Origin: an uncultured Gemmatimonadaceae bacterium
GTDB taxonomy: Bacteria; Gemmatimonadota; Gemmatimonadetes; Gemmatimonadales; Gemmatimonadaceae
Length of the DNA stretch: 64,000 nucleotides
NCBI GenBank assembly: GCA_963761305.1
Contig: CAVXGK010000002.1
Coordinates: 3,296,001-3,360,000, forward strand
Direction of reading: 5' to 3'
Of the stretch, positions 33,857 to 58,400 are shown one piece after another; the stretch's first letter is position 1, and each line of letters begins with the position of its first letter. A program made the translations under genes and the position numbers. Under the pieces are notes generated by a model, which saw only the letters and a list, made by a program, of their open reading frames with translations, was not told where the DNA came from and made no database searches.

Positions 33857-33943
33857 CGCGCACGCCGTTGCCGCCATTCCCGTGCGCCCTCATATTCGCG
33901 TTTCCCCCTCTTCGCCGACGCCGGCGCCTTCCAGCAGAATCTC

Positions 33944-39288: not shown

Positions 39289-39305
39289 GAATCGCCCGCG
39301 CGCGA

Positions 39306-40481: not shown

Positions 40482-40536
40482 GCTCGGCTCCTTGCGAGGG
40501 CCGGCGCTGGTGGGAGCGCACGGGGGCGATGTCACG

Positions 40537-40803
<267 letters not shown>

Positions 40804-40805
40804 TT

Positions 40806-41381
40806 ATGGGCATGCCTGTGTCGTCGCGGCCGCAACGCCGCTATACGCTGCAAGAGTTCGAGCGTCTTCGCGACGCCGCCCAGCCGGGGCCGCGGTACGA
40901 GTTCCTCGAAGGCGAGGTTCTCGTGACGCCGTCGCCGAACTTGGTGCATCAGCGAATCGTCCTGCGTCTCGCGATGCTGATTGGGCCATTCGTCGAGGCA
41001 AACGGCTTGGGTGAGGTCGTGATCTCGCCGTTCGACGTTCGATTTGCGGACGAGACGGTGTTCCAGCCGGACCTTCTCGTCATGACCGCGGCCGACGTTC
41101 ACTCGGGCCGACGCGACGCGGCGCGCGAGCTCTCACTGGCGGCAGAGGTCATGTCGTTCGGCTCGGCCCGACACGATCGGGTGCGGAAGCGGTCGACATA
41201 CCAGCAACACCGCGTCGATGAGCTGTGGCTCGTCGACCCCGAGAGCGAATTGGTCGAGCGGTGGAGACCGGACGACGAGCGCCCCCAGATTCTCACGGAC
41301 ACACTGGCGTGGAGTCCTGCCGGCACCAGCGAGTCTCTGGCGATCGGTCTGGTCGAATTGTTCACCGAGGCGAAACGGTAG
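40806..41381 (+). CDS. Uma2 (DUF820) family putative endonuclease
   Basis: RYEFLEG, PSPNLVHQ, QPDLLV, AEVMS, DRVRKR, WLVDP. Confidence 0.9.
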   Translation: MGMPVSSRPQRRYTLQEFERLRDAAQPGPRYEFLEGEVLVTPSPNLVHQRIVLRLAMLIGPFVEANGLGEVVISPFDVRFADETVFQPDLLVMTAADVHSGRRDAARELSLAAEVMSFGSARHDRVRKRSTYQQHRVDELWLVDPESELVERWRPDDERPQILTDTLAWSPAGTSESLAIGLVELFTEAKR

Positions 41382-41384
41382 CTC

Positions 41385-43775
41385 CTACGACTTGAGCGTC
41401 GTCCCGAGAACTCGCCGCTTCAGATCGAGGAAGCGCGGGTCGTTCTCGACGCTGCGAAACCAGGGCGAGTTCCAGCCGAGAAGCGCGCGCAGGCTGAACG
41501 TCTTTTTTCGAAACGCGGTCTCCAGCCACTGCATCGTGTGATCGGCGTCTCCCATGCCGGCATACGCAATCGCGATGAAATCCGGATCGACCCACTGCCG
41601 CCGCTCTCGGGCCTCGATGAGTCGAATCTGCTCGAGCGCTTTGGTGCGGTTGCCCATCCTGCCGTAGGTCACCGCGAGACCGGTCGACGGCTGTCCGAAC
41701 GTCTTCTCGAACGCCGAGAACGCCTTCAATGCGTCGTCGTAGCGGGCCATGTCGAGATACGCGATCCCGTCGGTTGCCTCCCAGACGACGACCATCGAAT
41801 CGAGCGACTTGGCGATCGAGTCGACTCGAAGCGCTGCCGCCGGGCGTCCACCCCAGGCGAACGCTTCGGCGGACAGCCGCTGGGCGAGCGCCGACAACGG
41901 ATCGACATGGACCAATCTGGCGGCGAGCGAGAACGCTTTCGTCGTGTCGCCGGACAGGTATGAGAACAACCCGTACATGAACAACGCGTCCGGCGAGTTC
42001 GGGTCGAGCGCCAGGCCGCGCTCCATCTCCGCGCGCCCGGCGGCGAAGTCCCAAGTCGCCGCGCCGATTTCGTATCCGTGAATCACGCGCGCTTCCGCCA
42101 ACAAACTGTCGGCCGCCACCGCGCGCTCGGCCGCGGCCAGCGCCAGCGAGTGGTACTCGTGCGACGGCATGTAGACGTCGGAGAGAATGTCGTACACGAA
42201 GGCGACGCCGGCGTGCGCCTGCGCGTAGTTCGGGTCGAGCTTGAGGGCGTCCTGGAAGTAGCCGAGCGCTCTCTGCAAAGCGTCGGGAGTGAGCTTGTTC
42301 TTCTCGAACACGCCGCGGAGATACAAGTCGTGCGCCTCGGCGTTCGTGGTCCGCCCCGCGTGCGCGACGGCGACGACCGTCGGCGAGAGCACCATGCGCA
42401 TCTCGGCCGCGATCGCGCTCGTGATGTCGTCCTGCATCGCGAAGTTGTCCTTGTTCTCGCGATCGTACGTCTGTGACCAGAGCAGTTTGCCGTCGGGACG
42501 ATTGAGTTGCATCTGCAATCGAACGCGGCCCATGCCAGGCTGCAGCTTGCCGGTCAACAGCAGGCCGACGTGCAGCTGCCTCGCGATCTCCACCGGTGCG
42601 GCGCGCGTGCCCTTGAAGCGAAAGGTCGAGAGATCGCCCGCGATCTGCATGCCCGGAATCTTCTGGAGCTCGTGCGCCAACTCGCTCGTCATGCCGTCGG
42701 CCAGGTACTGTGTGGTCGAGTCGCCGCCAAGGTTTTCGATCGGTAACACGGCGAGCGTGTTGTCGACGGGTGCCGCCCCACTGGGTTGTCTGACAAAAAG
42801 CGCGACGACGCCGACAACGACCAACGTGGCGACCGTAAGCCCGGCGGCGAACACGTGCTTCGTTCCACGGTTGGTCGTCGTCGCCGTCGACGCATTGGGG
42901 CTTGCCGCGCCCGGCGTGACGATCGCGTCGAGCGCACGGACAATTTCCTCGGCGGTCTGCGGACGATCGTCGGGCGACTTCGCGAGGCACCGCATCACCA
43001 GGTCGGCGAGCGCCGGACTCACGCCGGCACGCAGGGTTCCGACGGGCCTCGGAGTCTCGCGGATCTGCGCGGCGATCAACGCCTGCGTCGAGCGTCCGGT
43101 GAACGGCGGCGCGCCGGTGATCAATTCGTAGGCGAGAATGCCCCACGCGTACAGATCCACTCGATGATCCACCGACGGATCGGCGACTGCTTGTTCCGGC
43201 GCCATGTATGCCGGCGTCCCGATCGCGATCCCGGCCGACGTCGTTCCAAACGCGCCGCCCCTCGCCCCCCCAGGGCCGGCGGCGTCGAGCGCCTTGGCGA
43301 CCCCGAAGTCGGTGACCATCGCCGCGCCGCCCGACATGAGAATGTTGTCCGGCTTGATGTCGCGATGGATGACGTCGTGAGCGTGGGCGTACGCGAGCGC
43401 GCTCGCGACTTCTCGCAGAATGCGGATCGTCTCGTTGAGCGGCGGTGGCCCGTCGCGGACTATGCGCGCGCGCAACGATTCGCCGTCGACGAACGGCATG
43501 GTGAAGTAGGGCAGGCCGTGAAATTCGCCCGAGGAGAGAAGCGGGACGATGTGCGCGTGCTGGAGCCGCGCGGCGATCGTGATCTCACGCCTGAACCGTT
43601 CGACCGAGAGATGCCCCGCCATCTCGGCCGGCAGCACCTTCACGACGACGCGGCGGTTGAGCGCGCGCTCGACGCCGAGAAAGACCCGCGACATACCTCC
43701 GCCGCCGAGCTCACGATCGAGCGTGTAGGCGGAGCCGAGTGCTTCCTCGAGCTTGGGGCGGATGTCGGCGGACAC
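41385..43775 (-). CDS. Ser/Thr kinase with TolB-N-like and TPR domains
   Basis: GGGGMSRVF, HRDIKPDN, DFG; LAVLPIENLGGD; TPR repeats (ALKLDPNYAQAHAG). Confidence 0.93.
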   Translation of the reverse strand: MSADIRPKLEEALGSAYTLDRELGGGGMSRVFLGVERALNRRVVVKVLPAEMAGHLSVERFRREITIAARLQHAHIVPLLSSGEFHGLPYFTMPFVDGESLRARIVRDGPPPLNETIRILREVASALAYAHAHDVIHRDIKPDNILMSGGAAMVTDFGVAKALDAAGPGGARGGAFGTTSAGIAIGTPAYMAPEQAVADPSVDHRVDLYAWGILAYELITGAPPFTGRSTQALIAAQIRETPRPVGTLRAGVSPALADLVMRCLAKSPDDRPQTAEEIVRALDAIVTPGAASPNASTATTTNRGTKHVFAAGLTVATLVVVGVVALFVRQPSGAAPVDNTLAVLPIENLGGDSTTQYLADGMTSELAHELQKIPGMQIAGDLSTFRFKGTRAAPVEIARQLHVGLLLTGKLQPGMGRVRLQMQLNRPDGKLLWSQTYDRENKDNFAMQDDITSAIAAEMRMVLSPTVVAVAHAGRTTNAEAHDLYLRGVFEKNKLTPDALQRALGYFQDALKLDPNYAQAHAGVAFVYDILSDVYMPSHEYHSLALAAAERAVAADSLLAEARVIHGYEIGAATWDFAAGRAEMERGLALDPNSPDALFMYGLFSYLSGDTTKAFSLAARLVHVDPLSALAQRLSAEAFAWGGRPAAALRVDSIAKSLDSMVVVWEATDGIAYLDMARYDDALKAFSAFEKTFGQPSTGLAVTYGRMGNRTKALEQIRLIEARERRQWVDPDFIAIAYAGMGDADHTMQWLETAFRKKTFSLRALLGWNSPWFRSVENDPRFLDLKRRVLGTTLKS

Positions 43776-43857
43776 GGGCCTCCGTCGGCCGGGTCGAATC
43801 CGGGTAAGGTACAGCTCGAGCGGCCCGCTGGCACCCGCCCGAGCCTTCCTCGGCCGC

Positions 43858-44445
43858 CTAAAGCACCCGCCGCGCCGCCACGAAGTACGTCACGAACCAC
43901 TCGCCGCCCGAGTTGAGATCCGTGTAGCCAACCCCGCCGAGTGAGCTCGACGCATGGAGAATGCGCCCGTTGCCGGCGTAGATCGCGACGTGTGAGATCG
44001 CCGCGCCAGGCTCGGCGAACATCATGAGATCTCCCGGTCTCAGCGCGCGGAAGTCGGCCTCGACCGCCGTTCCCGCACGAACCTGCTCGCGCGCCGTCCT
44101 CGGCAGCGCGATGTGGTACTTCGCGAATATGTATTTCGTGAACCCCGAGCAGTCGAACCCTTCGCGCGGCGTGTTGCCTCCCCACGCGTAACGCGTGCCG
44201 ATGTACTCGCTCGCCGTGTTCAGCACTCGCGCGGCGGCGGCTGACGGCGGAGGAGAGTCGGGAATCCGTCGCCCGGTTCGCGCCGGTTGTCCGCCGCTCG
44301 TTGTCGGCGTCGGGGGAAGGCTCGCGATCACCGCGGCGAGGATGTCTCCGGGCGAGACGTTGAGCGCTGTCGTCGTGCAGCCGGCGAGTGGCAGCAGGGA
44401 TACGACGGCGATCGCGCCGACCGGGAGTCGTGCGGGCGTGATCAT
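43858..44445 (-). CDS. NlpC/P60 (C40) peptidoglycan peptidase, lipoprotein
   Basis: LAGC lipobox; YAWGG, FDCSGF, PGDL, HVAIYAG, HAS. Start uncertain. Confidence 0.92.
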   Translation of the reverse strand: MITPARLPVGAIAVVSLLPLAGCTTTALNVSPGDILAAVIASLPPTPTTSGGQPARTGRRIPDSPPPSAAAARVLNTASEYIGTRYAWGGNTPREGFDCSGFTKYIFAKYHIALPRTAREQVRAGTAVEADFRALRPGDLMMFAEPGAAISHVAIYAGNGRILHASSSLGGVGYTDLNSGGEWFVTYFVAARRVL

Positions 44446-44665
44446 ACCGCACGCGAAGGCATCATTGGCGCCCGTTGCGTGGAGCTGCGGCAACAGGTTC
44501 CGGGTCAACGTGTTAGATGACCGGGCGGGTTGAACGAGAGCAGTGGACCGTCCGCTCTCGGCGACAGATCAGTGGATGGAGTAGTGGACGAGCTCGAGCG
44601 TATTCGGATCGCGCTCTAGATCCCGGGCCGTCTCGGCGTCCGAGGGCCACCCTCGAGCCGCGCTC

Positions 44666-46810
44666 TTACAATCGCTTTTGTAACTCGACGAACCGCTGTT
44701 CTCCACGCAGGAGCGTCAAATCGCTGTCGTGCTCGAGCCACTCCCGATGCCCGAAGCCGCACTCCACTGCCTTTTCCAAGCACGCCAGCGCTTCGTCCTT
44801 CATGTCGCCGAGCGCGTACACGCACGCCACGTTGTAGAGCACCATCGAGTCCGATGGATTCGAGTCGTGCGCCTTGCGCACCCAGTCGAGCGCGCGATCG
44901 CGTTGGCCCAGCTGCATCAGCGCGCCGGCGCCGAGGTAGAGCGCGCGCGGATCGTCCGGATGGAGGTCGAGGTGCCGGTCCAGGCGCTGCATGGCGCGGT
45001 GGATGTTGTCGGTCGCATCCTGCTCTCGCCCCAGCCCCTTGAGCGGGCCGGTGGCTAGCAGCATCGCCTGATAGTCCTCCGGTCTCACCTCGGCTGCCTT
45101 GGCGAAGTTTTTCGCGGCCTCGTCCAGCTTTCCTTCCTGGAGACACGCCCGGGCGAACAGGTAGTACGCCTCGAACAATTTCGGATCGAGCTGCAGGGCA
45201 CGCTCGAATTCCGGGCGCGCTTCGGAGTAGCGCCGGCTCAATGACAATGCGAAGCCGCGCGACGCGTGCGCCGCCGCAAGGTTCAGGTCGAGCTCCAACG
45301 CACGCCGGCTGGCGGCGTCGGCGCCGTCGAGGTTGGACTTGCTGCCGTCCCAATACATGTAGAGAAACGCGCAGCAGTCGGCGATGCCGGTGTAGGCGAG
45401 CGCGTACTCCGGCTCAATCTCGATCGCCCGCTCGAACATCCGCCGTGCGTACTGGATGCTCGTGCGGCTCCACTGATGGAAGTACTGGCGCCCGCGGAGA
45501 TAGTACTCGTACGCCTGCACGTTCACGATGGGCGATTTCTCGAGCGCGCGCTTCTCGTCCTCGCTCAGCACGAGGCGCAGCGCCTTGACGATGTTGCCGG
45601 CGATCTCGTCCTGGATCGCGAACACGTCCTCGAGCTGACGGTCGAAGCGCTCCGACCAGAGGTGATACCCGTCGGCCACGTTCACCAACTGCGCCGTCAC
45701 GCGGAGGCGGTCACCCGCCTTTCGCACGCTCCCCTCGAGGACCGTCGCGACCTTGAGCTTTCGCCCGATCTCGCTGATGTCCTCGCTCTTTCCCTTGAAC
45801 GCGAATGACGACGTGCGCGACGCGACGCGCAGCGCCTGCACCTTGCTCAGCGCGTTGATGATCTCCTCGGCGATTCCCTCGCAGAAGAAATCCTGATCGT
45901 GCTGCGGGCTCATGTCCGAGAACGCGAGCACGGCGATCGACTTCGTGTTCGCCTTCGTTTCCGGCGGCGTGGACGTGCCGCTGGGCCACGTGAGCGCCTG
46001 TGCGAACTGACTCGCCGTGGCGAAACGCGCCGCCGGCGTCTTGGCGAGCGACTTGGTGATCGCCTGGTCGAGAAACTCCGGGGTGTCGGGCCGCGCGTCG
46101 CGCACAGGCGGCACCTGCTCCATGAATAGTTTGGCCATGATGGCCTGCATGTTCGGGCCGGTGAACGGCGCCGACCCGGTCACCATCTCATAGAGCATCG
46201 CGCCGAGCGAGTAAACATCGGCGCGTCCGTCGATCTCGATCTCGCCGGACGCTTGCTCGGGGCTCATGTACGAGGGCGTGCCCACCGCCATCCCCGTCTG
46301 CGTGAGGCTGTTCGACGCCGCGGCGGAAATGGCCTTCGCGATCCCGAAATCCGTGACGACGGCCTCACCGTCGTGCATCATCACGTTCTCGGGCTTGATG
46401 TCGCGATGGATGACTTGCTGCCGGTGCGCGTAGTCGAGCGCCGCCGCCACGGCCCGCGCGATTTGCACGGCGTCTTCTATAGAAAGGCGGGGTTGACGCT
46501 GGAGGCGCTGTCTGAGCGATTCGCCCTCGACGAACGGCATCACGTAGTACAACAAATCGTCCGCGCGCCCCGAGTCGTACATCGGGACGATGTGTGGGTG
46601 CTGCAGCCGACCAGCGATCTGGATCTCGCGCAGGAATCGCTCGGGCCCCAGGCTCTCGGCGAGGTGCGAGTGCAGGACTTTGATGGCGACCGGACGATTG
46701 TGCCGGGTGTCGTGCGCGCGGTAGACGGTTGCCATGCCGCCGCGACCGATCTCACGCTCGACTTCGTAGTGGCCGCCGAGCGCGGTGTTCAGCTTCGAGA
46801 TCGAATCCAT
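44666..46810 (-). CDS. Cytoplasmic Ser/Thr kinase with TolB-N-like and TPR domains
   Basis: GRGGMATVY, HRDIKPEN, DFG; SIAVLAFSDMS; multiple TPRs; no TM segment seen. Confidence 0.93.
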   Translation of the reverse strand: MDSISKLNTALGGHYEVEREIGRGGMATVYRAHDTRHNRPVAIKVLHSHLAESLGPERFLREIQIAGRLQHPHIVPMYDSGRADDLLYYVMPFVEGESLRQRLQRQPRLSIEDAVQIARAVAAALDYAHRQQVIHRDIKPENVMMHDGEAVVTDFGIAKAISAAASNSLTQTGMAVGTPSYMSPEQASGEIEIDGRADVYSLGAMLYEMVTGSAPFTGPNMQAIMAKLFMEQVPPVRDARPDTPEFLDQAITKSLAKTPAARFATASQFAQALTWPSGTSTPPETKANTKSIAVLAFSDMSPQHDQDFFCEGIAEEIINALSKVQALRVASRTSSFAFKGKSEDISEIGRKLKVATVLEGSVRKAGDRLRVTAQLVNVADGYHLWSERFDRQLEDVFAIQDEIAGNIVKALRLVLSEDEKRALEKSPIVNVQAYEYYLRGRQYFHQWSRTSIQYARRMFERAIEIEPEYALAYTGIADCCAFLYMYWDGSKSNLDGADAASRRALELDLNLAAAHASRGFALSLSRRYSEARPEFERALQLDPKLFEAYYLFARACLQEGKLDEAAKNFAKAAEVRPEDYQAMLLATGPLKGLGREQDATDNIHRAMQRLDRHLDLHPDDPRALYLGAGALMQLGQRDRALDWVRKAHDSNPSDSMVLYNVACVYALGDMKDEALACLEKAVECGFGHREWLEHDSDLTLLRGEQRFVELQKRL

Positions 46811-46960: not shown

Positions 46961-49054
46961 TCAGAGCAGAATGTCGCCGCGTATCCGCTGTCTCATGGCC
47001 CACCACAGAGCGCCGAGAACGGAGGACCGTTGAATTACGACCTTTGCCTCGCCGGTTGCCGCCGCTCGCCATGCTCCCTCGGTCCGAACCGGCACCCGCG
47101 CCTCGATCGCGCCCCCGACCACGCCTCCGGCCGCCGAGACCCCGCCGATCGACGCTACGATTGCATTCCAAGGATCGGCGAGCGTCACGAGTCGCACTGT
47201 CTGCCCCGCCCGCACGCGCGTTGCTCCGGCCCCGTCGAGCGCGACGCGCGCTTCGAGAGAGTCCACCGTCGCGATGGAAAGAATCCGGTCGCCGGCGTTG
47301 ACACTGCGCCCGGCCTGCTCCTCGACCCGCGACGTCGTGATGACGCCGCTCCAACGCGCCCGAAGTGTGAGCGCATCGATTCGCGCCTGCAATCCGTCGA
47401 GCCGCGCGTTTGCGGCGGCGCGCTCATCATCAAGTCGCGCGACGATTGCCGCCTGGTTCGTCGCCCGCGCGCGGGACGCCGCGATGCTCAGCGAATCGAC
47501 CTGGCGCGCAGTCGATACCAACTCGCGCTCCAACGACCACACCACGATGCGGGCGACCGGCGCGCCGGCCGGAACGCGCGTTCCCTCGCGCACGAAGACC
47601 TCAGCGACGACTCCGCTGTCGGGCGCGACAAGGTCGAGTGTTCGCACCGGCGCGAGCGCGAATTGTCCCGACGCCGTGAGATTCCACGGGATGATCGCCA
47701 TCACGACTCCCGCAACGACCACCGCACTCGCGGCGACGATGGCTTTCCGTCTCCAGTTGCCACGTTTCCCTTTGGCGCGCCGCGTTCGCACGGCGAGCAC
47801 GAGCGTGCGTCCCCACTCGGCGATTCCATGGCGAGCGAGTGCGACGATCAGCCCGAGCGCAATCACGACTCCGATCACGCCCAGTGCCGCGCGCGCCCAG
47901 CCGAGGACCCACATCCCGACCACGGCGAACAGCAAGGCGACGTAACACACCGCGAGACTGCCGTAGATGAGAAACACACGCTTCTCTCGATCGCTCACCG
48001 ACGGCTCGGGAATCTCGAGGCGCAGCAAGTGCCGGCGGATCCACCAACCGAGGTACCCCTGTGCACGTTGGCGGAGATTCGGGATCTCCAGCCAATCGGT
48101 CAGCGCGAAGTAGCCGTCGAGCGGGATGAGTGGATTCATGTTCGTGAGAATCGTCGTCGCTCCGCCGATCAGCATCGCCGCGATCGCGATCTCCGAAATG
48201 AGCGTGCCGGGCCGCACAACGGTCCAGACGAGCGCCGCGATGCCGGCGATGACGAACTGAATCCAACTTCCGGCCGCCGTGACCCAGAGGCGCGAGCGCA
48301 CTTCAGGAAAGCTCCACGCGTCCGTCACGTTGCAGTAGAACGCGGGCTGAAAATACACGAGCATGAATCCCATCTCGTGGACTTCGCCGCCGAAGTACTT
48401 GCAGGTGAACCCGTGACCGAGTTCGTGGAGGAAGACGACACCCAGGCCGGTGAACCAGAGGACGACCGCGGCGCCGACCGTGAGATTGGTTAGTGAGTAC
48501 AGTTGAACGACGGTGTGCGAAAACTCGTCCCACCTCGCGGCGAGTACGCCGAAGTACGCGACGTACAGCAGCACCGAGACCGCGAGAAATGCCGGCGTGA
48601 AACACCAGCGAATCGCCGGAAGTACGCGGTTGAATGCCGCGTCGGGGTCGCCCATCGACCAGCGCATGCGGAGCAGCTCACCGCGAAACAACTTCGGCTG
48701 GCGTCTCCGCCGCCGCTCCGCGCGCAGTCGCTCGAGCTCGAGCGTGGTGCGCTCGACGAGCGTCCGTTCGAGCACTCCGATCGACGAGAGCTTGCGCGCG
48801 AACCCCTCTACCGCGCGCGCGGGAATGCGCAGTCCCTGCTCGGCCAGCGAACCCGCGATCTCGTCGGGCGTGCGTCGGCCGTCGAAGCAGCGCATGACGG
48901 CGATTTCCACCGCACCAAAACGGAAATACTTCCTCGTGGTGGGATCCTTTACGACGTAGCTCGTCTCGCCCTTGAACAACTGCTCGATGATGGCGAGGTC
49001 GGGTCGAAGTCGCGGAAGGAATCCCGCCGCGTCGCCAGTGAGCGCGGCACCCAC
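46961..49054 (-). CDS. RRE/PqqD-like - M50 intramembrane Zn peptidase - HlyD-type membrane-fusion protein fusion
   Basis: N-terminal YVVKDP..KYFRFG..CFDGRRTPDEI (RRE-like); HELGH, AAGS and NMNPLIPLDG M50 motifs; C-terminal APDSGVVAEVFVREG lipoyl-hairpin. Confidence 0.88.
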   Translation of the reverse strand: MGAALTGDAAGFLPRLRPDLAIIEQLFKGETSYVVKDPTTRKYFRFGAVEIAVMRCFDGRRTPDEIAGSLAEQGLRIPARAVEGFARKLSSIGVLERTLVERTTLELERLRAERRRRRQPKLFRGELLRMRWSMGDPDAAFNRVLPAIRWCFTPAFLAVSVLLYVAYFGVLAARWDEFSHTVVQLYSLTNLTVGAAVVLWFTGLGVVFLHELGHGFTCKYFGGEVHEMGFMLVYFQPAFYCNVTDAWSFPEVRSRLWVTAAGSWIQFVIAGIAALVWTVVRPGTLISEIAIAAMLIGGATTILTNMNPLIPLDGYFALTDWLEIPNLRQRAQGYLGWWIRRHLLRLEIPEPSVSDREKRVFLIYGSLAVCYVALLFAVVGMWVLGWARAALGVIGVVIALGLIVALARHGIAEWGRTLVLAVRTRRAKGKRGNWRRKAIVAASAVVVAGVVMAIIPWNLTASGQFALAPVRTLDLVAPDSGVVAEVFVREGTRVPAGAPVARIVVWSLERELVSTARQVDSLSIAASRARATNQAAIVARLDDERAAANARLDGLQARIDALTLRARWSGVITTSRVEEQAGRSVNAGDRILSIATVDSLEARVALDGAGATRVRAGQTVRLVTLADPWNAIVASIGGVSAAGGVVGGAIEARVPVRTEGAWRAAATGEAKVVIQRSSVLGALWWAMRQRIRGDILL

Positions 49055-50064
49055 TAGTCGCGCCGGGCGATCCGCTCGCCGGGTGAAAGGCCATTCACGA
49101 TCTCGACACGGCCGTCGCCGAGGTCGGCGCCAAGCGTGACGGGCCGAAGTGCCGTTCCACCATTCTCGACGACGAGCACGAATCCATCGGGTGCGACGGC
49201 GTCGCGCGGAATGGCGACGACGTGCCGCCGCTGATTACCGAGTCGAACGGTGACGCTGTTGCCGGGAATGAGCCGAGTGCCGTCCGATATGCGAAGTATC
49301 ACCTCGCGCGTTCCGCTCGCCGCATCGATGACTGAAGCGGCGCTCGTCACGACCGCGGCGGCGTTCGCTCCGTCGTCAGCCGCCACGGCCGCGTGATCGC
49401 CGACGTGCACGCTGGCCGCGCTCGACTCCGGAACACGAACGCGCACCAGCAGTGGCGCCGTCTCGGTCACGCGAAACAGCGTGTCGCCGACGTTCACATA
49501 GTGGCCGGGCCGCGCGTACCGAGCCGTGACCACGCCGCTGAACGGCGCCACGACCTTGGTGAGCTCCATGTCTCGCCGCGCCTTCCGTCGCACGAGATCC
49601 GCTTGTCGGTACTGAAGCTCGGCTTGCTCGGAATCCGCCTGGGTGATGCCGCCTGCCTTCGTCACCGCGCGGGCGCGAACGACCGCCTTGCCGAGGTTGT
49701 CGTAAGACGCTTCGGCCTGCGCGAGCGCGATTTGCTGGTCGGCGTTTTCCAACAGCGCCAACTGATTCCCACCGCTCACCCGATCGTTCAACTCCGCCAT
49801 CACTGAATCGACGTTCCCCGCCGACCGCGCCACCACGAACGCGTCGTGCTCGACATAGAGCTGCGCCGGCAACTGCAACGGCGCGCGCACGGTGGTCGTA
49901 TCGACGAGAATTCCTGCCGCCGCGGTCGCCGCCGGACGCTTCGCAGCCGCATTCGACTGCCGCCCACACGCACCGATGCCGACCAAGAACGCCGCGATCA
50001 GACGCGAACGCGCCGTTTGACCCGTCCACCTGTGCACCCGTCCACCTGTCCACCCGGCCTTCAT
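49054..50064 (-). CDS. Efflux periplasmic adaptor (MFP), lipoprotein
   Basis: GIGAC lipobox; VVAPFSGVV, VRVPE, IPRDAV, VEIVNGLSPGE; overlaps both neighbours. Confidence 0.88.
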   Translation of the reverse strand: MKAGWTGGRVHRWTGQTARSRLIAAFLVGIGACGRQSNAAAKRPAATAAAGILVDTTTVRAPLQLPAQLYVEHDAFVVARSAGNVDSVMAELNDRVSGGNQLALLENADQQIALAQAEASYDNLGKAVVRARAVTKAGGITQADSEQAELQYRQADLVRRKARRDMELTKVVAPFSGVVTARYARPGHYVNVGDTLFRVTETAPLLVRVRVPESSAASVHVGDHAAVAADDGANAAAVVTSAASVIDAASGTREVILRISDGTRLIPGNSVTVRLGNQRRHVVAIPRDAVAPDGFVLVVENGGTALRPVTLGADLGDGRVEIVNGLSPGERIARRD

Positions 50065-51836
50065 CCCCACATCCTCCACCAAATGAGCCTGATCCGCCGC
50101 CACGGTTCACGTGTCGCGCGGCCGAGCACCGACGACCGATCAGTCAGGACGCGGGCATAGGCGACCATCCCTGGACGAATGAGACCTTCATCGTTCGGAA
50201 CGAGCGCGCGCACCGGGAATCGCACAACACCCGCGCTGTCGGCGCCAAGGCTCGCGATCGCCGTGACGCGCCCGACGAACGTTCGCTGTGGAAACGCGTC
50301 CACGCGCAGTCGAAGCTCGTCGCCTACTCGCACACGACCGATGTCGCGCTGGTCGACCGCGAAATCCAGCTCGAGCGAATCCGTTCGACCGACGACGAGC
50401 AGCTCACTGCCTGCGTCCACCCACGAGCCGAGTCGCTCCTGCGGCCTCGGCGTGAGCACGACGCCAGTGACCGGGCTTCGCACGAGCGCCGCGCGCACTT
50501 GTTCGTCGAGCACGTTCGCTTCGCGGTGCAGCGCGTCGGCGCGCAACCGCTGGAGACGCTCTTCCGCCGCATCGCCTCGCGTCGATGCGGCCGTCGCCTC
50601 ACGGTCGGCGCTCACGGCGTCAGACAACGCGGCATCGCGCGCCGTGCGCTGCTCGACGTCGCGCAGTTTCGCAAGCGGATCGCCGCGTGCGACACGCGCG
50701 CCTTCTCCCACGAACACGCGTTCGACCACACCGTCCACGAGCGGACGAATGTCGGTGCGAACACTCGGCCGAAACGTCGGGGCGTTGGCGTCGACGCGCA
50801 GCGGCCACCGAATGAGCGTCAGCGCTCCGATCACCACCGCGGCGATCACGGCCCAGGTGACGCGCCGCCGCGCCGGCAGCGCGAGGAACGCTTCCTTCTT
50901 CGCGTGAATCGCGCCGAGCGTGTCGGCCAGCGGGACCTGCTGGTACAGTTGGGCGTTGCGGAGCGCGACCGTCGCCTGATTGGCCAGGATCGTCGCCAGC
51001 TCGCGCTGCCGCTGCGTCGCGAACTCCGGACGCTCGGCCTCGAAGAGCAGAATGCCGAGCACTCCTTCGTCGTCCTTGAGCGGGATGTACAACCCGCTCG
51101 CGACGCCGTCCGCCTCGAGATCCCCTTCAAAGATCTGTAAGAAGAGACGCTCGGCATCGGACGCCGCCTCGGTGCGATCGGAGAGGTAGAATGCTTCGCC
51201 GACCCCGGCCGCCCACGCGCCGCGCACCGCGAGATCCTGAAGGTCGGGATCCGCCGGGTCGAACTTCTCGACACCGGCGAGCGCGCGAATGTCGCACTTG
51301 CCGCGTTCATAGAGAGCGATCGCTCCGCGGTCGAACGCGATCGCGCGCATCGCGAGATTCACCACCGCACGCATCACGCGGTCGAGATCGAGCGTCGAGC
51401 CGATCGCTCGGCTCATCTCCATCACGAGCTCGAGATCGCGCGTGCGGTCGTTCGCCGCCACGTATTCCGCATTTCGCAGCGCGACGCCGGCGACGTCCGC
51501 CAACCGCGTGAGCGCCGCGCGCTCGGCGGCAGTGAAAGGCCCGTGAGCGGCCAGGTCGCGCGCGACCCGCACCGCTTGCGGCGCACCCGGTCCGAGCGGA
51601 GCGACGAGGACCGCCATTCCTTCCTCGTCATCCAGCGGACTCGCCTGCAACTCGGACGAGAAGATGGCGCGATCCGCATGCAGGATCGCGCGCGCGAACG
51701 TCAGGGTTTTCGCCTCGACGTCGGCGGCATCGAGGCAGCCCGCGAGCTCGACCAGCGCACCGTGAATCGGATCGTCAGCCCCGATCGCCAGCTGTTCCGT
51801 CGGCGTCGCCGTCAGCGGCAAATCGGTCAGCGTCAC
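50061..51836 (-). CDS. GAF-domain - TM - HlyD-type membrane-fusion protein
   Basis: GAF (STLDLDRVM...ILANQATVALRNAQLY) preceded by a degenerate GAF; TM helix; VDGVVERVFVGEG, VRSPVTGVV, LIRPGM. Confidence 0.88.
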   Translation of the reverse strand: MTLTDLPLTATPTEQLAIGADDPIHGALVELAGCLDAADVEAKTLTFARAILHADRAIFSSELQASPLDDEEGMAVLVAPLGPGAPQAVRVARDLAAHGPFTAAERAALTRLADVAGVALRNAEYVAANDRTRDLELVMEMSRAIGSTLDLDRVMRAVVNLAMRAIAFDRGAIALYERGKCDIRALAGVEKFDPADPDLQDLAVRGAWAAGVGEAFYLSDRTEAASDAERLFLQIFEGDLEADGVASGLYIPLKDDEGVLGILLFEAERPEFATQRQRELATILANQATVALRNAQLYQQVPLADTLGAIHAKKEAFLALPARRRVTWAVIAAVVIGALTLIRWPLRVDANAPTFRPSVRTDIRPLVDGVVERVFVGEGARVARGDPLAKLRDVEQRTARDAALSDAVSADREATAASTRGDAAEERLQRLRADALHREANVLDEQVRAALVRSPVTGVVLTPRPQERLGSWVDAGSELLVVGRTDSLELDFAVDQRDIGRVRVGDELRLRVDAFPQRTFVGRVTAIASLGADSAGVVRFPVRALVPNDEGLIRPGMVAYARVLTDRSSVLGRATREPWRRIRLIWWRMWG

Positions 51837-51949
51837 CAGAGGGAGGGGCGAAACATCGGGTCCTGACGGCCGGAGGGAGGGGCTAAGCTGGCTCTAGGTG
51901 TGCTCAGCCGCAATGGCGGTCGACGGATGGATCGGCGGACCCGGACAAC

Positions 51950-51983
51950 AAAAAACGGAGCGGGGGAGAATGCTCCCCCGCTC
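51950..51983 (-). terminator. Rho-independent terminator downstream of the peptide genes
   Basis: 11-bp perfect stem GAGCGGGGGAG/CTCCCCCGCTC with 4-nt loop, followed on the minus strand by TTTTTT. Confidence 0.88.
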
Positions 51984-52014
51984 GCCGCCTGCCGTTAAAG
52001 CCGGTTCTGTGGCT

Positions 52015-52161
52015 CTAAAGAATCCGCGTCGGGGCGATTCGCTCTTCGAGCTCGCTGACCGTCAGCTCGATCGCCTCGACGTCCTTGCCAGTCTCCTTCT
52101 TCACGACCTGCTTCTGGGTGTTCGTGAGGTCGATCCGGACGATGTCTTTTTCCTTGCTCAT
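52015..52161 (-). CDS. 48-aa precursor-like peptide 2: MSKEKDIVRIDLTNTQKQVVKKETGKDVEAIELTVSELEERIAPTRIL
   Basis: Hand-translated ATG 52161 to TAG 52015; GAAGG RBS; paralog of 52257..52403 with mostly synonymous changes. Confidence 0.9.
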   Translation of the reverse strand: MSKEKDIVRIDLTNTQKQVVKKETGKDVEAIELTVSELEERIAPTRIL

Positions 52162-52256
52162 GGAGGCACCTTCATATGGAAGTGTGGGGGGGACTGGAAT
52201 GCTGTGACCAGACGACGAATCGAGACTTCCGAGGCATTAAAGCCTGTTTTGCAGCC

Positions 52257-52403
52257 TTAAAACACCACTCTCGGGGCGATTCGCTCCTCGAGCTCGCTGA
52301 CGGTCAGTTCGATCGCTTCGGCGTCCTTCCCCGTCTCCTTCTTCACGACCTGCTTCTGGGTGTTCGTCAGGTCGATCCGGACGATCTCTTTCTCTTTGCT
52401 CAT
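52257..52403 (-). CDS. 48-aa precursor-like peptide 1: MSKEKEIVRIDLTNTQKQVVKKETGKDAEAIELTVSELEERIAPRVVF
   Basis: ATG 52403 to TAA 52257; GAAGG RBS; start fixed by alignment with its paralog. Confidence 0.9.
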   Translation of the reverse strand: MSKEKEIVRIDLTNTQKQVVKKETGKDAEAIELTVSELEERIAPRVVF

Positions 52404-52459
52404 GGTCGCACCTTCATATAGAAGACGGTGGGGATGGACTGCTTCTTTCAACGGATGAG

Positions 52460-52513
52460 ATGGTACTTCCGGTCCGTGAATGGGGCGTGAATCTTCAGGT
52501 GGCGATCGTGAAT
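52460..52513 (-). promoter_or_regulatory. SARP-type promoter: three phased ATTCACG heptamers followed by a TACCAT -10 box
   Basis: CGTGAAT on + at 52475, 52486 and 52507 (11 and 21 bp apart); TACCAT on - at 52460-52465, 9 bp after the last repeat. Confidence 0.65.
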
Positions 52514-52557
52514 TTCGTTCCCCCCAGGGGCCGTACCACCTTCTAGCCGGAGCGACT

Positions 52558-54738
52558 TTGCCCGCGCTGTCACTCACGTTGTGCGGTCGCGTCGCGGCGG
52601 CACTCGACGGGACCCAGCTGCCGGCGGCTGCGCTCAGCAACAAGAGCCTGGCACTCCTCGCCTTCCTTACACTCGAGCCAGGGCCGCACAGCCGAGACGA
52701 GGTCACGGCGCTTCTCTGGGGTGACTACCCGGACGAGAAGGCCCGCACCTCACTCCGACAGGCGCTCTCCCATCTCCGCGACATAGTCGGCGACTCCATT
52801 CACACCGACCGGACGTCGCTGGCGCTCGTGGCCGAGCCGGACAGCGACGTTCGCAGATTCCTCGCCGCCGCCGATGTCTCTCCGCGCGAAGCCGCCGAGG
52901 TCGACATCCCGCATTTCCTCGCGGGACTCCAGCTCAGACATTCGTCGGGATTCGAGGAGTGGGCGGACGAGAAGCGGCAGTCGCTGCTTCGCCGGTACAC
53001 CAGTGTGCTGGCCGCGACGATTCGCGAGTCGATCGCCGGCAGCCGGTGGCGCGACGCCGTACGCGCCGCCGAGCGTTGGGTCTCGATCGACGCGTTCTCC
53101 GCCGACGCCACGCTCGCGCTGATGGAATCACAATTCCTCTCGGGCAATCGCGCGGCGGCGTTGCAAGCGCTCGCCGACCATCGGTCGCGTCTTGCCTGCG
53201 GCGATCGTCCCGATCAACGACTCGCCGACCTCGCGCAGCGCATCGAGGACGCGCGGCTGAGCGGCGAAGTCCGGCGCCCAGCCACCGAAGCGTGGTACTC
53301 GACGTCGCCGTCGTTCTATGGAAGTCTCATCGGACGCGAGAGCGAATGGGATCGGCTCCGTGCGACGTGGCGGCAAGTCTTGCAGGGCAAGCCGCGGGTC
53401 GTTCTCATCGAGGGTGAGTCGGGCGTCGGAAAGTCCCGGCTTGCCGGCGACTTCACGCGGTGGGTGACGGCCGAAGGCGGCACGGTGCTGCGCGGGCACG
53501 GATTCGACGTGCGCGTCGGCCTTCCGTTCGGCGCGATGATCGAAGCGCTGCGTTCGGGGATCGATGCGCCGGGACTGAGCGGCACCGATCCACAATGGCT
53601 GGCCGAGATAGCGCGCGTCGTGCCGGAGCTCAAACAACGCTTTGTGGGTCTGCCCGAGATCGCCCCCGCGTCGACGGCCGACAGTTGGCGCTTGTTCGAG
53701 GGAATCGCGCAGATGCTTCTCGCGATCTCCGAAGAGACGCCGGTCACCGTGCTGATCGACGACGTGCAATGGTGCGACGCCGACAGTTGCGCGCTGCTCC
53801 ATTTTCTCGTGCGCAAACTGGAGAAGGCCGCCGTGCTCTGGTGCGTCACCTTCGCTCCCGGCGCCGTCGAGCGCGACGCGGCGGCCGCGCGATGGGTGCG
53901 CGCGCTGCGCGGCTCGCCGGCGTGCGAGGTGATCGCGCTCCGCCCGTTGACCGACGACGAAGTGTGGCAGCTCGTGCATGGACTCGGCCGAGTGAGCGCG
54001 CCGGCCGACGCCCGCCGTCTCGCGTCACGAATCTTTGAAGTGACCGCCGGCTATCCGTTCTACATCGTCGAGCTGCTCAAGACGCTCTTTGCGCAGGGTT
54101 GGCTGACGGTCGACCCGGAAACCGGAGAGTGGATCGTGCGCGCGACCGACGGGCGTGACGAGCCGTCGCTCGTGCTATCGGTTCACGAAGCGATCGCCGA
54201 GCGGATCGAGTGCCTTCCGGATGACCTCAAGGACGTGCTGATCACCGTCGCCGTGTCGACGCGAGGATGCCGCACGGACATCCTCTCACACGTCCACGGC
54301 ATCTCACGTCTGCGCGCGGCGGCGATCGGAGATGGACTGGTCGAACGACATCTGGTCGTCGAGGACAACGGCGCCTATCGCTGCGCGCACCCGGTGATCG
54401 GGCGCGTGATGGTCGACGAGCTCGGGACGTCGCGCAAGCGCGAAGTCCATCGCGGACTCGCGCTGGCGATGGAGCTCGTGGGTTCGCAGCAGCGCGAGTT
54501 CTCCGACCACGGCGAGATCGCGCGGCATGCGGAGCAAGCCGGTGAGCGAGGCATGGCCTATCGCTTTGCGATGCAAGCCGTCGAGGCGTGCGAGCGCCGA
54601 TTCGCGTTCGACGAAGCACTCGGCTGGCTCGACTTCGCGTCCGCCGTGGCGGCGACGTCCAGCGAAGCCGACGCCGTGAATCGCGCGACCGCGCAGATGT
54701 TCGAGATCTCCGACCGTCGCGAGATCTCGAGCCGCTAG
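52558..54738 (+). CDS. SARP-like (wHTH-BTAD) transcriptional regulator with AAA/STAND ATPase domain
   Basis: ALLAFL, SRDEVTALLW, SLRQALSHLR, FEEW (BTAD); IGRESE, Walker A GESGVGKS, IDDVQW, TAGYPFYIVE; TTG start with GGAG. Confidence 0.9.
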   Translation: MPALSLTLCGRVAAALDGTQLPAAALSNKSLALLAFLTLEPGPHSRDEVTALLWGDYPDEKARTSLRQALSHLRDIVGDSIHTDRTSLALVAEPDSDVRRFLAAADVSPREAAEVDIPHFLAGLQLRHSSGFEEWADEKRQSLLRRYTSVLAATIRESIAGSRWRDAVRAAERWVSIDAFSADATLALMESQFLSGNRAAALQALADHRSRLACGDRPDQRLADLAQRIEDARLSGEVRRPATEAWYSTSPSFYGSLIGRESEWDRLRATWRQVLQGKPRVVLIEGESGVGKSRLAGDFTRWVTAEGGTVLRGHGFDVRVGLPFGAMIEALRSGIDAPGLSGTDPQWLAEIARVVPELKQRFVGLPEIAPASTADSWRLFEGIAQMLLAISEETPVTVLIDDVQWCDADSCALLHFLVRKLEKAAVLWCVTFAPGAVERDAAAARWVRALRGSPACEVIALRPLTDDEVWQLVHGLGRVSAPADARRLASRIFEVTAGYPFYIVELLKTLFAQGWLTVDPETGEWIVRATDGRDEPSLVLSVHEAIAERIECLPDDLKDVLITVAVSTRGCRTDILSHVHGISRLRAAAIGDGLVERHLVVEDNGAYRCAHPVIGRVMVDELGTSRKREVHRGLALAMELVGSQQREFSDHGEIARHAEQAGERGMAYRFAMQAVEACERRFAFDEALGWLDFASAVAATSSEADAVNRATAQMFEISDRREISSR

Positions 54739-54757: not shown

Positions 54758-57700
54758 TTACTTCACGCCGGCCGGAACTTTGATGGTCACTCCGTATTTA
54801 GCGAGCGCCTGACTCACCGCGCTTGCCTTGCCAAGGAACGCGTTGCCATCCGCGACCGCCTTTGGCAGCGCGATCTTGACGTCGCTGTACTGACGTACCG
54901 ACGCCGCGCTCGGCGCTTCCCACACGCCGGCGAGCTGCGTCTTTAGCGTCGACGTGCGAGCGAGCACGTTCTCGGGATCCACAGCGCCACCGCGACCGCC
55001 CCCCCACCGCCGCGGCCGCCAGCGCCTGCGTTGGTCGGCACGCCGAACTTCTTGCGGATCGCATCGAACTCCTTGTTCAGGGACTCGAACTGCGTTTTCA
55101 CATTGGCGGGTATGTCGCTCTTCTCGCCCACGGATTTCGCGGCGGCCTCCATCTGCGGGTAGAGCGAGTTGAGCGCCGTCGCCATCGCGACGCCTCGACG
55201 CTGGATCGCGTGCAGATCGGTGACGATCGCGTTGTAACGCTCGTGCTCACCCGGAGCGAAGTGGACGTCCGGGTCGAATACGAGCTTGATCGGCTTCGAG
55301 TCGAGCATTTTCGCGCCTGACATCAGCGCGACAGTGTACGTGCCAGGCATCACGTACGGCGCTGGCCCGCCGAGCCCACCACCGCCGCCGAAACCGCCCC
55401 CCCCGCCCCCACCCCCGCGACCTGCCGCCGCCGAGCTGTCAGTCGGCGTCGAGCACGGATTCACCGGCAGGTATCCGGCGCTCGGCACGGGCTGCGGGAC
55501 TCCGGGCGCAGCCGGACCGCCGCGGCCTCCTCTGCCTCCACCGCCGCCGCCGCCGCCGCGTCCACCACGACCGCCACCGGCTGCTTCCGAGTCCACCGGC
55601 GCCGTGATCGGCTCGCCGCGCATGTCCCAGCACGCAGTTTGAATTCCAGGTTGTGACTTCGTGCTCGGAATCTTCACTGTGCGCACGGTCTTGCCGGCGG
55701 CGTCGTTCACGCGCAGTGAGAGATCGTCCATCGGCGACTTGAGGAAATACTGGACGACCGCCTCGTTGGGCGGGTTCTCGCCGAGGAAGTATTGGTGGCC
55801 CCAGAACTCGTCGTTCCGGTCGTCCTTCGTCTTCCATTCGAGCGCCGCCGGCACGGTGAAGAGCTTCGCGTCGGCCGACTGCGCCGCATTGTATTCCTGA
55901 ATCGGTTCGAGGTGGTCGAACATCCACAGCGCGCGGCCGTGCGTCGCGACGAGCATCGCGTTGTCGCGCGGATGCAGCGTGATCTCGTCCACGCGCACCG
56001 TGGGCAGATTCGCCTGGAGACGTGCCCAGCTTTTGCCGCGGTCGAATGAGATCAGGATTCCGGTTTCGGTGCCGAGGTAGAGCACGTCGCGATTGCGCTG
56101 ATCCTCGGTGAACGTCTTGACGACGTCGCTCTGGAGGTTGTCCGAGAGCGAATGGAACGTCGCGCCGAAGTCCGTGCTCACCCACACGTACGGCTTGAAG
56201 TCGTCGAGCCGGTGATTGTCGATCGTCACGTAAACCGTGCCGGCGTCGTACGCGGACGGGGCGACTTTGCTGACCCATCCGCCGACGGGCGCGCCCGGCA
56301 GATTCTTCGTGATGTTCTGCCAACTCTTGCCGGCGTCGCGCGACACGTACAGCAGCCCGTCGTCGCTCCCCGTGTAGTAGACGCCCCGCTGCTTCGGTGA
56401 CTCGGCGAGCGTGACGATCGCCGGCCACTGCGACACGCCGTCGTCGCGCGAGATGTGGATGTCGGAGCCCTTGAGCCCCATCGTGACGATCGTGTCGCGG
56501 TTCGCGTTCGACGTGAGATCAGGACTGATCACCGTCCACGAGTCGCCACGGTCGTGCGACACGAAGACACGATTCGCCGCGACGATCAGCTCGCCGGGAT
56601 CGTTCGGCGAGATGATCATCGGCGTGTCCCACTCCCAGCGGAACGCCTCGCCAGGCTTCGGTGCCGGCGTCACGTTGAGCGCGTTCGGACGGATCTGCTT
56701 CGACTCGCCGGTGACCGTGTGTCGCCGGATGATGTTGCCGTCCTGCGTCTCGCTGTAGATCCAGTGCGAGTCCTTCTTGTCGGGAATCGCGACGAAGCCG
56801 TCGCCGCCCTGAATCTGGATACCAGTCCGAGCTCATGATGCCGTTTGCGAACCGCGACGCGCTCGGGCCGCACCAGTCGTAGTTGTCCTGCATGCCGCCG
56901 CAGACGTTGAACGGATACGCCATGTCGTAGCCGACATGGTAGAACAGTCCGACCGGAAGGTTGGCGAAGAAGTTCCACGTCTTGGCGCCGTCGTACGACA
57001 CGCTCACGCCGCCGTCGTCGCCGATCATCATGTGATCGGAGTTATTCGGATCGAGCCAGATCGCGTGCATGTCGTCGTGCGCGACGAGGGATGCCTGGCC
57101 TTCCGTGGTTTTTCCGCCGTCGATCGTGAGCTACATCTTCACGCCGCCCTGGAAGACGCGGTCCGGATTGCTCGGATCGACGCGCACCTGGCTGAAGTAG
57201 AGCGGCCGCGGATTTGTCGAGCTCACCTTGTGCCACGTCGCGCCCCCGTCGTCAGAGCGATAGAGCCCACTTTCCCCGGCCTCCGCGGCGCCGCCGCGGC
57301 CACCGCGGCCACCCGCCGCGGCAGTCGTGTCACCAGTCTCCGGATTGACGCCGCCGCGCCCACCACGGCCGGCCGCCGGCGCCGGAGCTTCGATAGATGC
57401 GTACACGACGTTGCCGTTCTTGCGATACATGTCGAGTCCGACACGGCCCAAGGGTCCCGCTGGCAATCCATTAGCAAGGCGCGTCCAGGTGTCACCGCCG
57501 TCGATCGATTTCCAAACTCCGCTCCCCGGACCGCCGCCGTTCACACAGCACGCCGTGCGGCGCCGCTGGTACGTCGACGCGTAGATCGTCTTCGGGTCGG
57601 TGTACGACATCGCGAGGTCATTCGCGCCAGTCTCGTCGTCGACGAAGAGCACGCGCTTCCAGGTCTTACCGCCATCGGTCGTCTTGTAGACGCCACGGTC

Positions 57701-58222
57701 GCCGCCCGGTCCGAAGATCGAGCCGACCGCCGCGACGAGCACGACGTCGTCGTTGCTCGGATCGATCAGGATGCGATTGATGTGCTTCGAGTCCTTGAGC
57801 CCGACGTTCGCGAACGTCTTGCCGCCGTCGGTGGACTTCCATACGCCGTCGCCCCACGACGTCGTCTGCCGATTGTTCGCTTCGCCGCTGCCGACCCAAA
57901 TGACGTTGGGGTTCTGCTGCGACACGGTGACGTCGCCGATGGAGAGCAGACCCTTGTTCTGCAAGAGCGGCGTGAACGTGGCGCCGTTGCTCGTCGTCTT
58001 CCAAACGCCGCCGTGCGCGGTGCCCACATACCATATGGATGTGTTCTTCTCGTACACGGCGAAGTCGGAGATGCGCCCCGACATGATCGCCGGTCCGATG
58101 GACCGGAAGTGGAGCTTGTCGAACTGTTGCGCGACGGGCCCGACGGCCTGCCCAAACGCGAGATGACTTGCGACGGTGACGACGGCGGCCGGCAGTCCGA
58201 CACGGCGCACGAGGCGAAACAT
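54758..58222 (-). pseudogene. Large secreted BNR/Vps10-like beta-propeller (glycosyl hydrolase-like) protein, interrupted by one in-frame TAG and two frameshifts
   Basis: FRSIGP..GRI, many SxDGGxTW Asp-boxes, GGMQDN; TAG at 57131-57133; shifts near 56817 and in the C7 run at 54999-55005. Confidence 0.8.
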
Positions 58223-58400
58223 TGACGCTCCGGGCAACGGTTGTGAGGTGCGAGGATTCTAGCGCGCGCGACGGTCCGCGGCGAGCCGCCCTCGGAGGAA
58301 GGGTCCACTCAGAGCAGCACCAGCCAACCCATGCCTGACGACGCCCGCACGGCGACCGTACATTTTGGCTGCCGGACACTTGGCTCCCCCTCGCTCGCCT

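Follow-up and report, generated by a model that had tools for sequence, protein, structure and literature searches.

Peptidase-containing ATP-binding cassette (ABC) exporters recognise an N-terminal double-glycine leader, remove it by C39 cleavage at the inner membrane, and pass the cargo on via a membrane fusion protein (MFP) and TolC. Kamneva, Poudel and Ward (2015) described a module in which GAF-HlyD, Peptidase_M50-HlyD and HlyD genes stand beside secondary SecA_DEAD proteins; no ABC transporter was found, the M50 protein was proposed as an inner-membrane pore, and the role of the module was called completely unknown (PMC4452313). In the daptides, the leader carries E(-8), L(-7), D(-6), P(-5), M(-4), E(-3) and P(-1), and is removed by MpaP, an intramembrane peptidase that depends on a recognition element (RRE) for RiPPs, peptides that the ribosome makes and that are modified after translation (Ren et al. 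2023, PMC10036551). Here we report on a locus that appears to combine features of these systems. It lies at positions 46,961 to 54,738 of a 64,000-nucleotide stretch, hereafter the window, from an uncultured Gemmatimonadaceae soil bacterium (contig CAVXGK010000002.1; G000:C2:3296001-3360000; part of a 5.2-Mb genome that is 93% complete and has its closest named kin in the Gemmatimonadaceae), and holds two tiny peptide genes, three MFP genes, one of them fused to an RRE and an M50 site-2 protease, and a divergent regulator.

In the reading that we favour, with a probability of roughly 0.6, the peptide leader would guide cleavage, and the released tail would be exported through the MFPs and a TolC acting in trans, giving unmodified short signals. 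The original prediction, made from the DNA letters, had called the system undescribed, and this holds in part: the adaptor trio is already present in Kamneva et al. 2015 (PMC4452313) and an RRE-M50 leader peptidase in the daptides, but their union was not met in a non-exhaustive literature search. Each half is already known, and there is a reasonable chance that the union of an RRE-peptidase with a pump-less adaptor trio forms a new secretion route. A literature search, which was not exhaustive, gave no description of this union, of the peptide family, of the leader signal or of a regulon under a SARP (Streptomyces antibiotic regulatory protein), and the M50 fusion was not found in the parts consulted of the adaptor reviews PMC8277102 and PMC4446572. 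The features of the locus, in window coordinates, are as follows.

46961..49054, minus strand: RRE-M50-MFP fusion, 697 aa, matching NF041824, HlyD_3 and weakly PF02163, and assigned from catalytic residues, folds and hydropathy; RRE at about residues 11-97, predicted cytoplasmic; seven predicted membrane helices; HELGH at 210-214; NPLIPLDG at 307-314; MFP, predicted periplasmic, after residue 457
49054..50064, minus strand: lipoprotein MFP with lipobox IGA|C; open frame from 50103, probable start ATG 50064; TIGR01730 at 154.7 bits, above the cut-off
50061..51836, minus strand: GAF-MFP, 591 aa, with GAF at 149-294, HlyD domains and one membrane helix at 326-344
51958..51983, minus strand: intrinsic-terminator-like hairpin between the peptides and the machine
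52015..52161, minus strand: precursor peptide 2, of 48 aa, with tail TRIL after a 44-aa leader that ends in ELEERIAP
52257..52403, minus strand: precursor peptide 1, of 48 aa, with tail RVVF after a 44-aa leader that ends in ELEERIAP
52460..52465, minus strand: possible -10 element TACCAT, 9 nt past the last box, as read from the sequence
52475..52512, minus strand: three phased TTCACG direct repeats, a putative SARP-type operator, with spacings of 21 and 11 bp
52558..54738, plus strand: divergent winged helix-turn-helix-BTAD-AAA (STAND) regulator, probably starting at TTG 52558 within an open frame from 52480

All of the parts that had been named in the original prediction are present, including the two paralogous 48-aa peptide genes, and domain and neighbourhood checks agree with it that no tailoring enzyme, ABC ATPase or TolC lies within the locus. 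With three MFP domains, the locus does hold the membrane fusion protein component of type I secretion. The GAF-MFP, lipoprotein MFP and M50-MFP genes overlap one another at their ends. Two starts were corrected because ribosome sites and homologues point there: the lipoprotein MFP probably begins at ATG 50064, where it overlaps the stop of the GAF-MFP, and the regulator's probable start is TTG 52558 rather than ATG 52480.

The two peptide genes lie inside a 197-nt duplication of 84% identity, with an AAGG-type ribosome site ahead of each. Over the 44 leader codons the two copies show nine synonymous and two residue-changing differences, and the leader thus appears to be under purifying selection. 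A leader profile matched the 5.2-Mb genome at these two places only, and there are two leader-bearing proteins among 4568 called genes. A protein search found 262 peptide homologues, of which 120 were listed; among the matches listed, the leader is nearly fixed up to IAP, conservation stops at the Pro, and the tails are mostly 3-6 residues long and differ almost every time. In 94 distinct short tails, large hydrophobic residues account for 56% of positions (21% expected from 66% GC DNA) and Gly plus Ala for 4% (22% expected), and because this composition departs from the GC-based expectation the tails do not look like neutral sequence. Arg or Lys falls within the first two tail positions in 73 of the 94, Cys is absent, and there is no shared Ser/Thr or other shared modifiable residue; Thr is the last residue in four, and the window peptides end in F and L. 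Such a sequence pattern is that of a precursor whose leader is conserved and whose core is variable and under selection. Folded alone, peptide 1 is predicted to form strand-helix-strand-helix, with a predicted template modelling score (pTM) of 0.43. Library searches found no Pfam or NCBIfam family that covers the peptides: the ammosamide/lymphostin leader family NF033737 (13 bits, cut-off 30) and DUF1192 (far below its cut-off) were both rejected, and no peptide matched NF012209, the LEPR-XLL model.

Some longer tails in relatives (our labels L for loci and G for genomes) resemble strands of the type VI tube protein Hcp. We compared 46 Gemmatimonadota-type tails of 8-35 residues with a profile from 13 Hcp proteins, scoring each against its own shuffles. 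Six matched at z > 4 (best z 12.8, uncorrected for repeated testing; L159, L025, L196, L162, L171 and L175), five of them in the same C-terminal strand region, and two further tails show a resemblance below the threshold. No Hcp gene was matched in the four peptide-rich genomes searched (84-99% complete), a PDB search with one Hcp-like peptide returned no Hcp, and the likeness is not a property of the window's own tails, RVVF and TRIL.

Other tail types were also seen. A recurrent family ending (L/I)AxN(H/S)NETLL follows the same leader in L017, L160, L164, L167-L170, L172 and L193, often in orphan genes with TTCACG boxes. Tails of eight residues such as IIAVLISL (L165, L173, L175, L197) may resemble the hydrophobic beginning of type IV pilins. 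The leader's first half alone is carried by small genes of 72-78 aa (L182-L188), which occur in genomes mostly without the machine, sometimes with an adjoining short kinase, and a convergent gene in L066 and L067:12165-13584, in which the leader's first half is followed by many 8-residue basic repeats, adjoins the GAF-MFP and M50-MFP genes.

The protease fusion matches NF041824, the daptide intramembrane metalloprotease, over residues 15-418 and nearly the whole model, with 214.7 bits against a cut-off of 300. Residues H210, E211, H214, D313 and G314 are invariant in 23 aligned homologues, and N307 is kept in at least 90% of them. In a structure model with a predicted local distance difference test (pLDDT) of 81.8, the N-terminus forms strands (21-47) and helices (48-91) in a three-strand, three-helix PqqD-like RRE fold, which compares well with the leader-binding RREs 6jx3 (Z 10.9, root-mean-square deviation 2.5 over 82 residues), 5v1u (Z 10.2) and PqqD (Z 8.5). 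The membrane part compares with RseP (Z 9.7), SpoIVFB (Z 9.0) and the site-2 protease (S2P) 3b4r (Z 8.3). The model thus predicts an RRE fold for the N-terminal domain and places the site-2 protease zinc ligands (HExxH, NPxxxxDG) in a membrane-embedded fold. The RRE and the intact M50 active site of the original prediction are borne out by these fold matches and invariant residues. Assignment to the RRE/PqqD class by profile went less well: the fold matches PqqD, but the Pfam PqqD profile gave no match here and a weak one in one homologue. No PqqD match was obtained elsewhere in the genome, in a search that is weak since Pfam also misses this RRE, and the genome holds one RRE-M50. Foldseek gave no match at E <= 0.001, its top rows nonetheless being S2P and RREs, and a sequence search of the PDB with the protease returned MacA-like adaptors only. 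In the hydropathy profile the hydrophobic helices number seven, a strongly basic loop precedes the last of them, and a weak eighth segment that falls inside the MFP was set aside; on these grounds the RRE is predicted to be cytoplasmic and the MFP periplasmic. The lipobox of the lipoprotein MFP is found by a strict pattern in 46 of 56 homologues.

Compared with the daptide peptidases MpaP/DapP, the locus shares an RRE fused to an intramembrane HExxH peptidase and several precursors per locus, and ELEERIAP has the length and register of the daptide leader and agrees with it at E(-8), L(-7) and P(-1), with an acid likewise at -6 (PMC10036551). By this analogy, leader recognition by the RRE and cleavage by the protease are likely, and cleavage would likely fall after Pro because ELEERIAP has the register of a leader that MpaP removes. 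Our locus differs in its MFP fusion and two further MFPs, its diderm host, and tails of 3-9 residues. It also differs from the daptide pathway in having no DapB/C/D/M enzymes, no terminal Thr and a family score below the cut-off; the daptide DUF-RRE, decarboxylase, aminotransferase and methyltransferase were neither found in the locus nor recurrent in its relatives. YydH/LiaK (EpeP) is likewise a site-2 protease that matures a ribosomal peptide, but our locus has no radical SAM epimerase or ABC exporter, and the protease scores 40.7 bits on NF058609, far below the cut-off of 225.

With the module of Kamneva et al. the locus has in common three adaptor proteins encoded together, no ABC transporter, and only occasional linkage to TolC; it differs in that this genome has no secondary SecA (PMC4452313). 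The published description is computational only, and the parts consulted do not name a substrate, small peptides, an RRE, a leader motif or a SARP regulator. In this 93% complete genome there is one SecA match, a 1111-aa frame far from the locus, and no secondary SecA. Because both this locus and TolC variants without an annotated SecA_DEAD exist, a secondary SecA is not a fixed part of the module. Our locus would work in the same way as a peptidase-containing ABC exporter, with a leader, inner-membrane cleavage, an MFP and, as we propose, TolC. It differs in having no ABC ATPase, C39 domain or double-glycine motif, and instead an RRE, a site-2 protease and three different MFPs.

The link between peptide and protease was assessed in homologous loci. 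A first set of 80 was collected via the protease, 66 of them Gemmatimonadota-type, and counts were restricted to loci with sufficient contig reach. Among the Gemmatimonadota loci that could be assessed, peptides were found in 48/48, the lipoprotein MFP in 60/60, the GAF-MFP in 51/51 and the divergent regulator in 45/47; the peptide-protease pairing on which the original prediction depended therefore stands. A second set of 78 loci was gathered via an acidobacterial homologue (about eleven repeat contigs of the first set) and is mostly distant, with hosts in Acidobacteriota, Verrucomicrobiota, Bacteroidota, Planctomycetota, Rokubacteria, Nitrospirota, Ignavibacteria, Zixibacteria and others. 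Of these 78, 45 include a short gene that shares the leader end, with tails of 5 to 136 residues in which G, N, P, S or K is often abundant. The smallest distant cassette consists of the peptide(s) and a single RRE-M50-MFP gene, and beyond Gemmatimonadota peptide and protease-MFP remain together without the regulator. Among 120 related genomes, which are kin and not independent, 20 have the protease and the full peptide, two the protease only, three the peptide only, and 95 neither; the protease-only genomes are ~80% complete, and the peptide counts exclude five partial matches to the first half of the leader.

Distant loci also show further recurring neighbours. In four acidobacterial loci (L135, L140, L153, L155) the protease-MFP is followed by a peptide EELExKIAP with 8-21 further residues and then by a membrane HD-GYP/GAF/GGDEF sensor; two of the four add a kinase-STAND or TPR protein, making a complete signalling layout. 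A 330-aa protein without a Pfam or NCBIfam match occurs in 14 distant loci (L113:10571-11557 and 13 others), directly 3' of the protease-MFP where inspected and often with Ser/Lys-rich peptides and a FemAB-like gene. HemK/PrmC-like methyltransferases are found among the peptides at L019:5689-6714, L008:11062-12024 and L159:5577-6326, and their N-terminus resembles the leader's first half (judged by eye for L159).

Turning to control, the regulator scores 23.8 bits for BTAD over a cut-off of 22.1, matches AAA_16, and reaches 16.8 bits for Trans_reg_C, below the cut-off. TTCACG stands at 52512, 52491 and 52480, and this triple is unique in the genome. The shorter TTCAC is present in 41/41 syntenic intergenic regions (mean 5.5 and maximum 14 in shuffles), at spacings of 11, 21-22 and 32, with the 11-bp spacing seen 39 times. 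SARP activators bind direct repeats 11 or 22 bp apart just upstream of the -10 element. The BTAD domain and the conserved boxes uphold the phased repeats and SARP-type regulator that had been predicted. Across the genome the paired TTCACG box on its own shows no enrichment (5 found, 3.7 expected), for which reason we do not propose a wider regulon here, and a sigma-70 scan found no promoter at the locus. Downstream of the last peptide, a hairpin plus T-tract is present in 28 of 44 relatives, compared with 1% of shuffles. In relatives as many as ten peptide genes lie dispersed at a distance from the machine, and in 39 stretches fetched, orphan peptide genes with the paired box were seen in L162, L167, L168, L170 and L171. 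Because these orphans bear the same boxes, their sequence suggests that they are controlled and processed in trans.

The route that we propose would begin with the BTAD-AAA protein activating the peptide promoter at the TTCACG boxes, with the terminator probably keeping the peptides in excess over the machine. The RRE domain of the protease would bind the ELEERIAP leader, and the zinc site, near the cytoplasmic face, would cut after Pro. The membrane part of the protease may substitute for the absent inner-membrane transporter, with export possibly gated by the GAF domains; the tail would then enter the adaptor channel and leave through a TolC encoded elsewhere. The hydrophobic-basic tetrapeptides would act unmodified as signals.

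As regards the missing pump, an ABC pattern matched three genes in 158 loci, none of them recurring. The genome has about 15 TolC-family genes (33 domain matches) outside the locus, and TolC is linked in some distant loci. The RRE-M50 part also matches 86 plasmid records, of which nine were opened. In seven of these a giant protein of 4,000-16,000 residues adjoins the machine, with TolC in three and no ABC transporter; of the other two, one is cut by the record start and one is a Streptomyces cluster of thiopeptide type, in which the copy lacks an MFP and an ABC transporter is present. The homologues of the machine that stand beside giant surface proteins are proteobacterial. The motif [LM]ExR occurs within the first 90 residues of 7/7 giants (in one, only upstream of the annotated start), compared with 4.5% of this genome's proteins, and NF012209 is matched by five of the seven. 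These LEPR-XLL giants share with our peptides an N-terminal LExR core in the same register and genes beside the same machine. They differ in cargo (4,000-16,000 residues against 4), in the motif end (xLL or FD against IAP) and in their weak profile likeness. We also note E. coli and Citrobacter plasmids with a pump-less TolC-MFP-MFP-M50/MFP operon, which in the one opened (L199, NZ_CP081687.1) lies behind a 4,459-aa Ig-like protein. A Pectobacterium multi-repeat adhesin system, considered as a lead, was dropped: PMC6963963, in the part consulted, mentions LapG and gives no link.

A wider reading, which we put forward tentatively and at slightly under even odds, is that the locus would represent, in its most reduced form, a secretion pathway that has gone unrecognised. 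An RRE-guided site-2 protease would replace the ABC transporter, read an N-terminal LExR, cut, and feed cargo of any size, from 4-residue peptides to 16,000-residue adhesins, into MFP-TolC. In Gemmatimonadota the cargo would be SARP-controlled short signals, some of them copied from Hcp strands.

Several observations weigh against the export of short signals by this machine. TolC lies within only 5 of the 158 loci, two of these on the same contig; the NF041824 score stays below the family cut-off; and ELEERIAP departs from the daptide leader at -4 and -3, positions important in daptides (PMC10036551). A full leader likeness in the giants was rejected, as 12-position profile scores fall within background (top 3-65%) and the LExR core only is shared. 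No peptide was found by pattern in 33 of the 78 second-set loci, some of them short contigs or pattern misses, and a Zixibacteria/Ignavibacteria group has no peptide even with full flanks. The main fact against an obligatory link between peptide and machine is the three peptide-only genomes (G094, G096 and G100; one genus, 92-95% complete), which hold the peptide and an adjoining regulator gene (L179-L181) without an RRE-M50 or GAF-MFP match. A four-residue peptide could moreover cross the outer membrane without TolC, which would leave the need for three adaptors unexplained, and no receptor was identified. The persistence of regulator and peptide without the machine in three genomes favours instead an account in which the peptides, once cut, would function within the cell or at the envelope: the BTAD-AAA regulator or kinase-TPR proteins would have the leader or tail as a ligand, which the protease removes, in a regulated-proteolysis circuit whose MFPs sense the envelope and do not export. 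The absence of a pump, the rarely linked TolC, the GAF domains and a kinase 3' in 16 of 56 loci fit this too, and site-2 proteases are classically signalling enzymes. However, outside Gemmatimonadota the regulator is missing though peptide and protease-MFP stay together, the same machine adjoins giant proteins and TolC, and tails in other phyla reach 136 aa; we regard this account as unlikely.

The original prediction had also allowed for scaffolds modified in trans, that is, tails of a modified RiPP with tailoring enzymes elsewhere. The RRE and daptide-like leader are suggestive of this, as are the HemK-like methyltransferase with a leader-like N-terminus in L008, L019 and L159 and the FemAB-like and further uncharacterised genes that recur in distant loci. 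This genome lends it little support, with two leader-bearing proteins, one RRE-M50 and tails without a shared modifiable residue; no enzyme is found in this locus or most relatives, the 94 tails have no Cys and no shared Ser/Thr, and no PqqD match exists elsewhere in the genome (a weak point, as Pfam misses this RRE too). We consider modification in trans quite improbable. The very short, hypervariable tails, together with the longer tails of other phyla, could alternatively mark the peptides as leftovers or decoys, either stumps of longer substrates or competitors that tune the machine for other cargo. But no other leader-bearing protein exists among the 4568 called genes, tail composition is strongly biased, the leader appears to be under purifying selection, and orphan copies have multiplied with their own boxes, all of which makes this account very unlikely.

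If export of leader-guided peptides is correct, substrates and a targeting signal can be named for a widespread adaptor module whose role stayed open in 2015, and the LEPR-XLL motif of giant proteins gains a function. It would also mean a leader-coupled export route that needs no ABC, resistance-nodulation-division (RND) or major facilitator superfamily (MFS) pump, and a leader/protease pair that apparently accepts almost any cargo, and it would suggest that peptides serve as signals in Gemmatimonadota, a phylum abundant in soil of which few members have been cultured. The locus is small enough for a single 8-kb construct and a mass spectrometer.

Outside the core, one neighbouring gene lies directly downstream of the machine.

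44666..46810, minus strand: Ser/Thr kinase-TPR gene, not core

This kinase was considered as a core part and rejected: in 16 of 56 loci some kinase is the gene directly 3' of the protease, but kinase paralogues number 58 in this genome. Within the window, a 17-kb segment (29760-46810) contains at least five Ser/Thr kinase genes. On the other side, at 54758-58237, a BNR/Vps10-repeat gene is broken into four frames, with assembly indels the probable cause.

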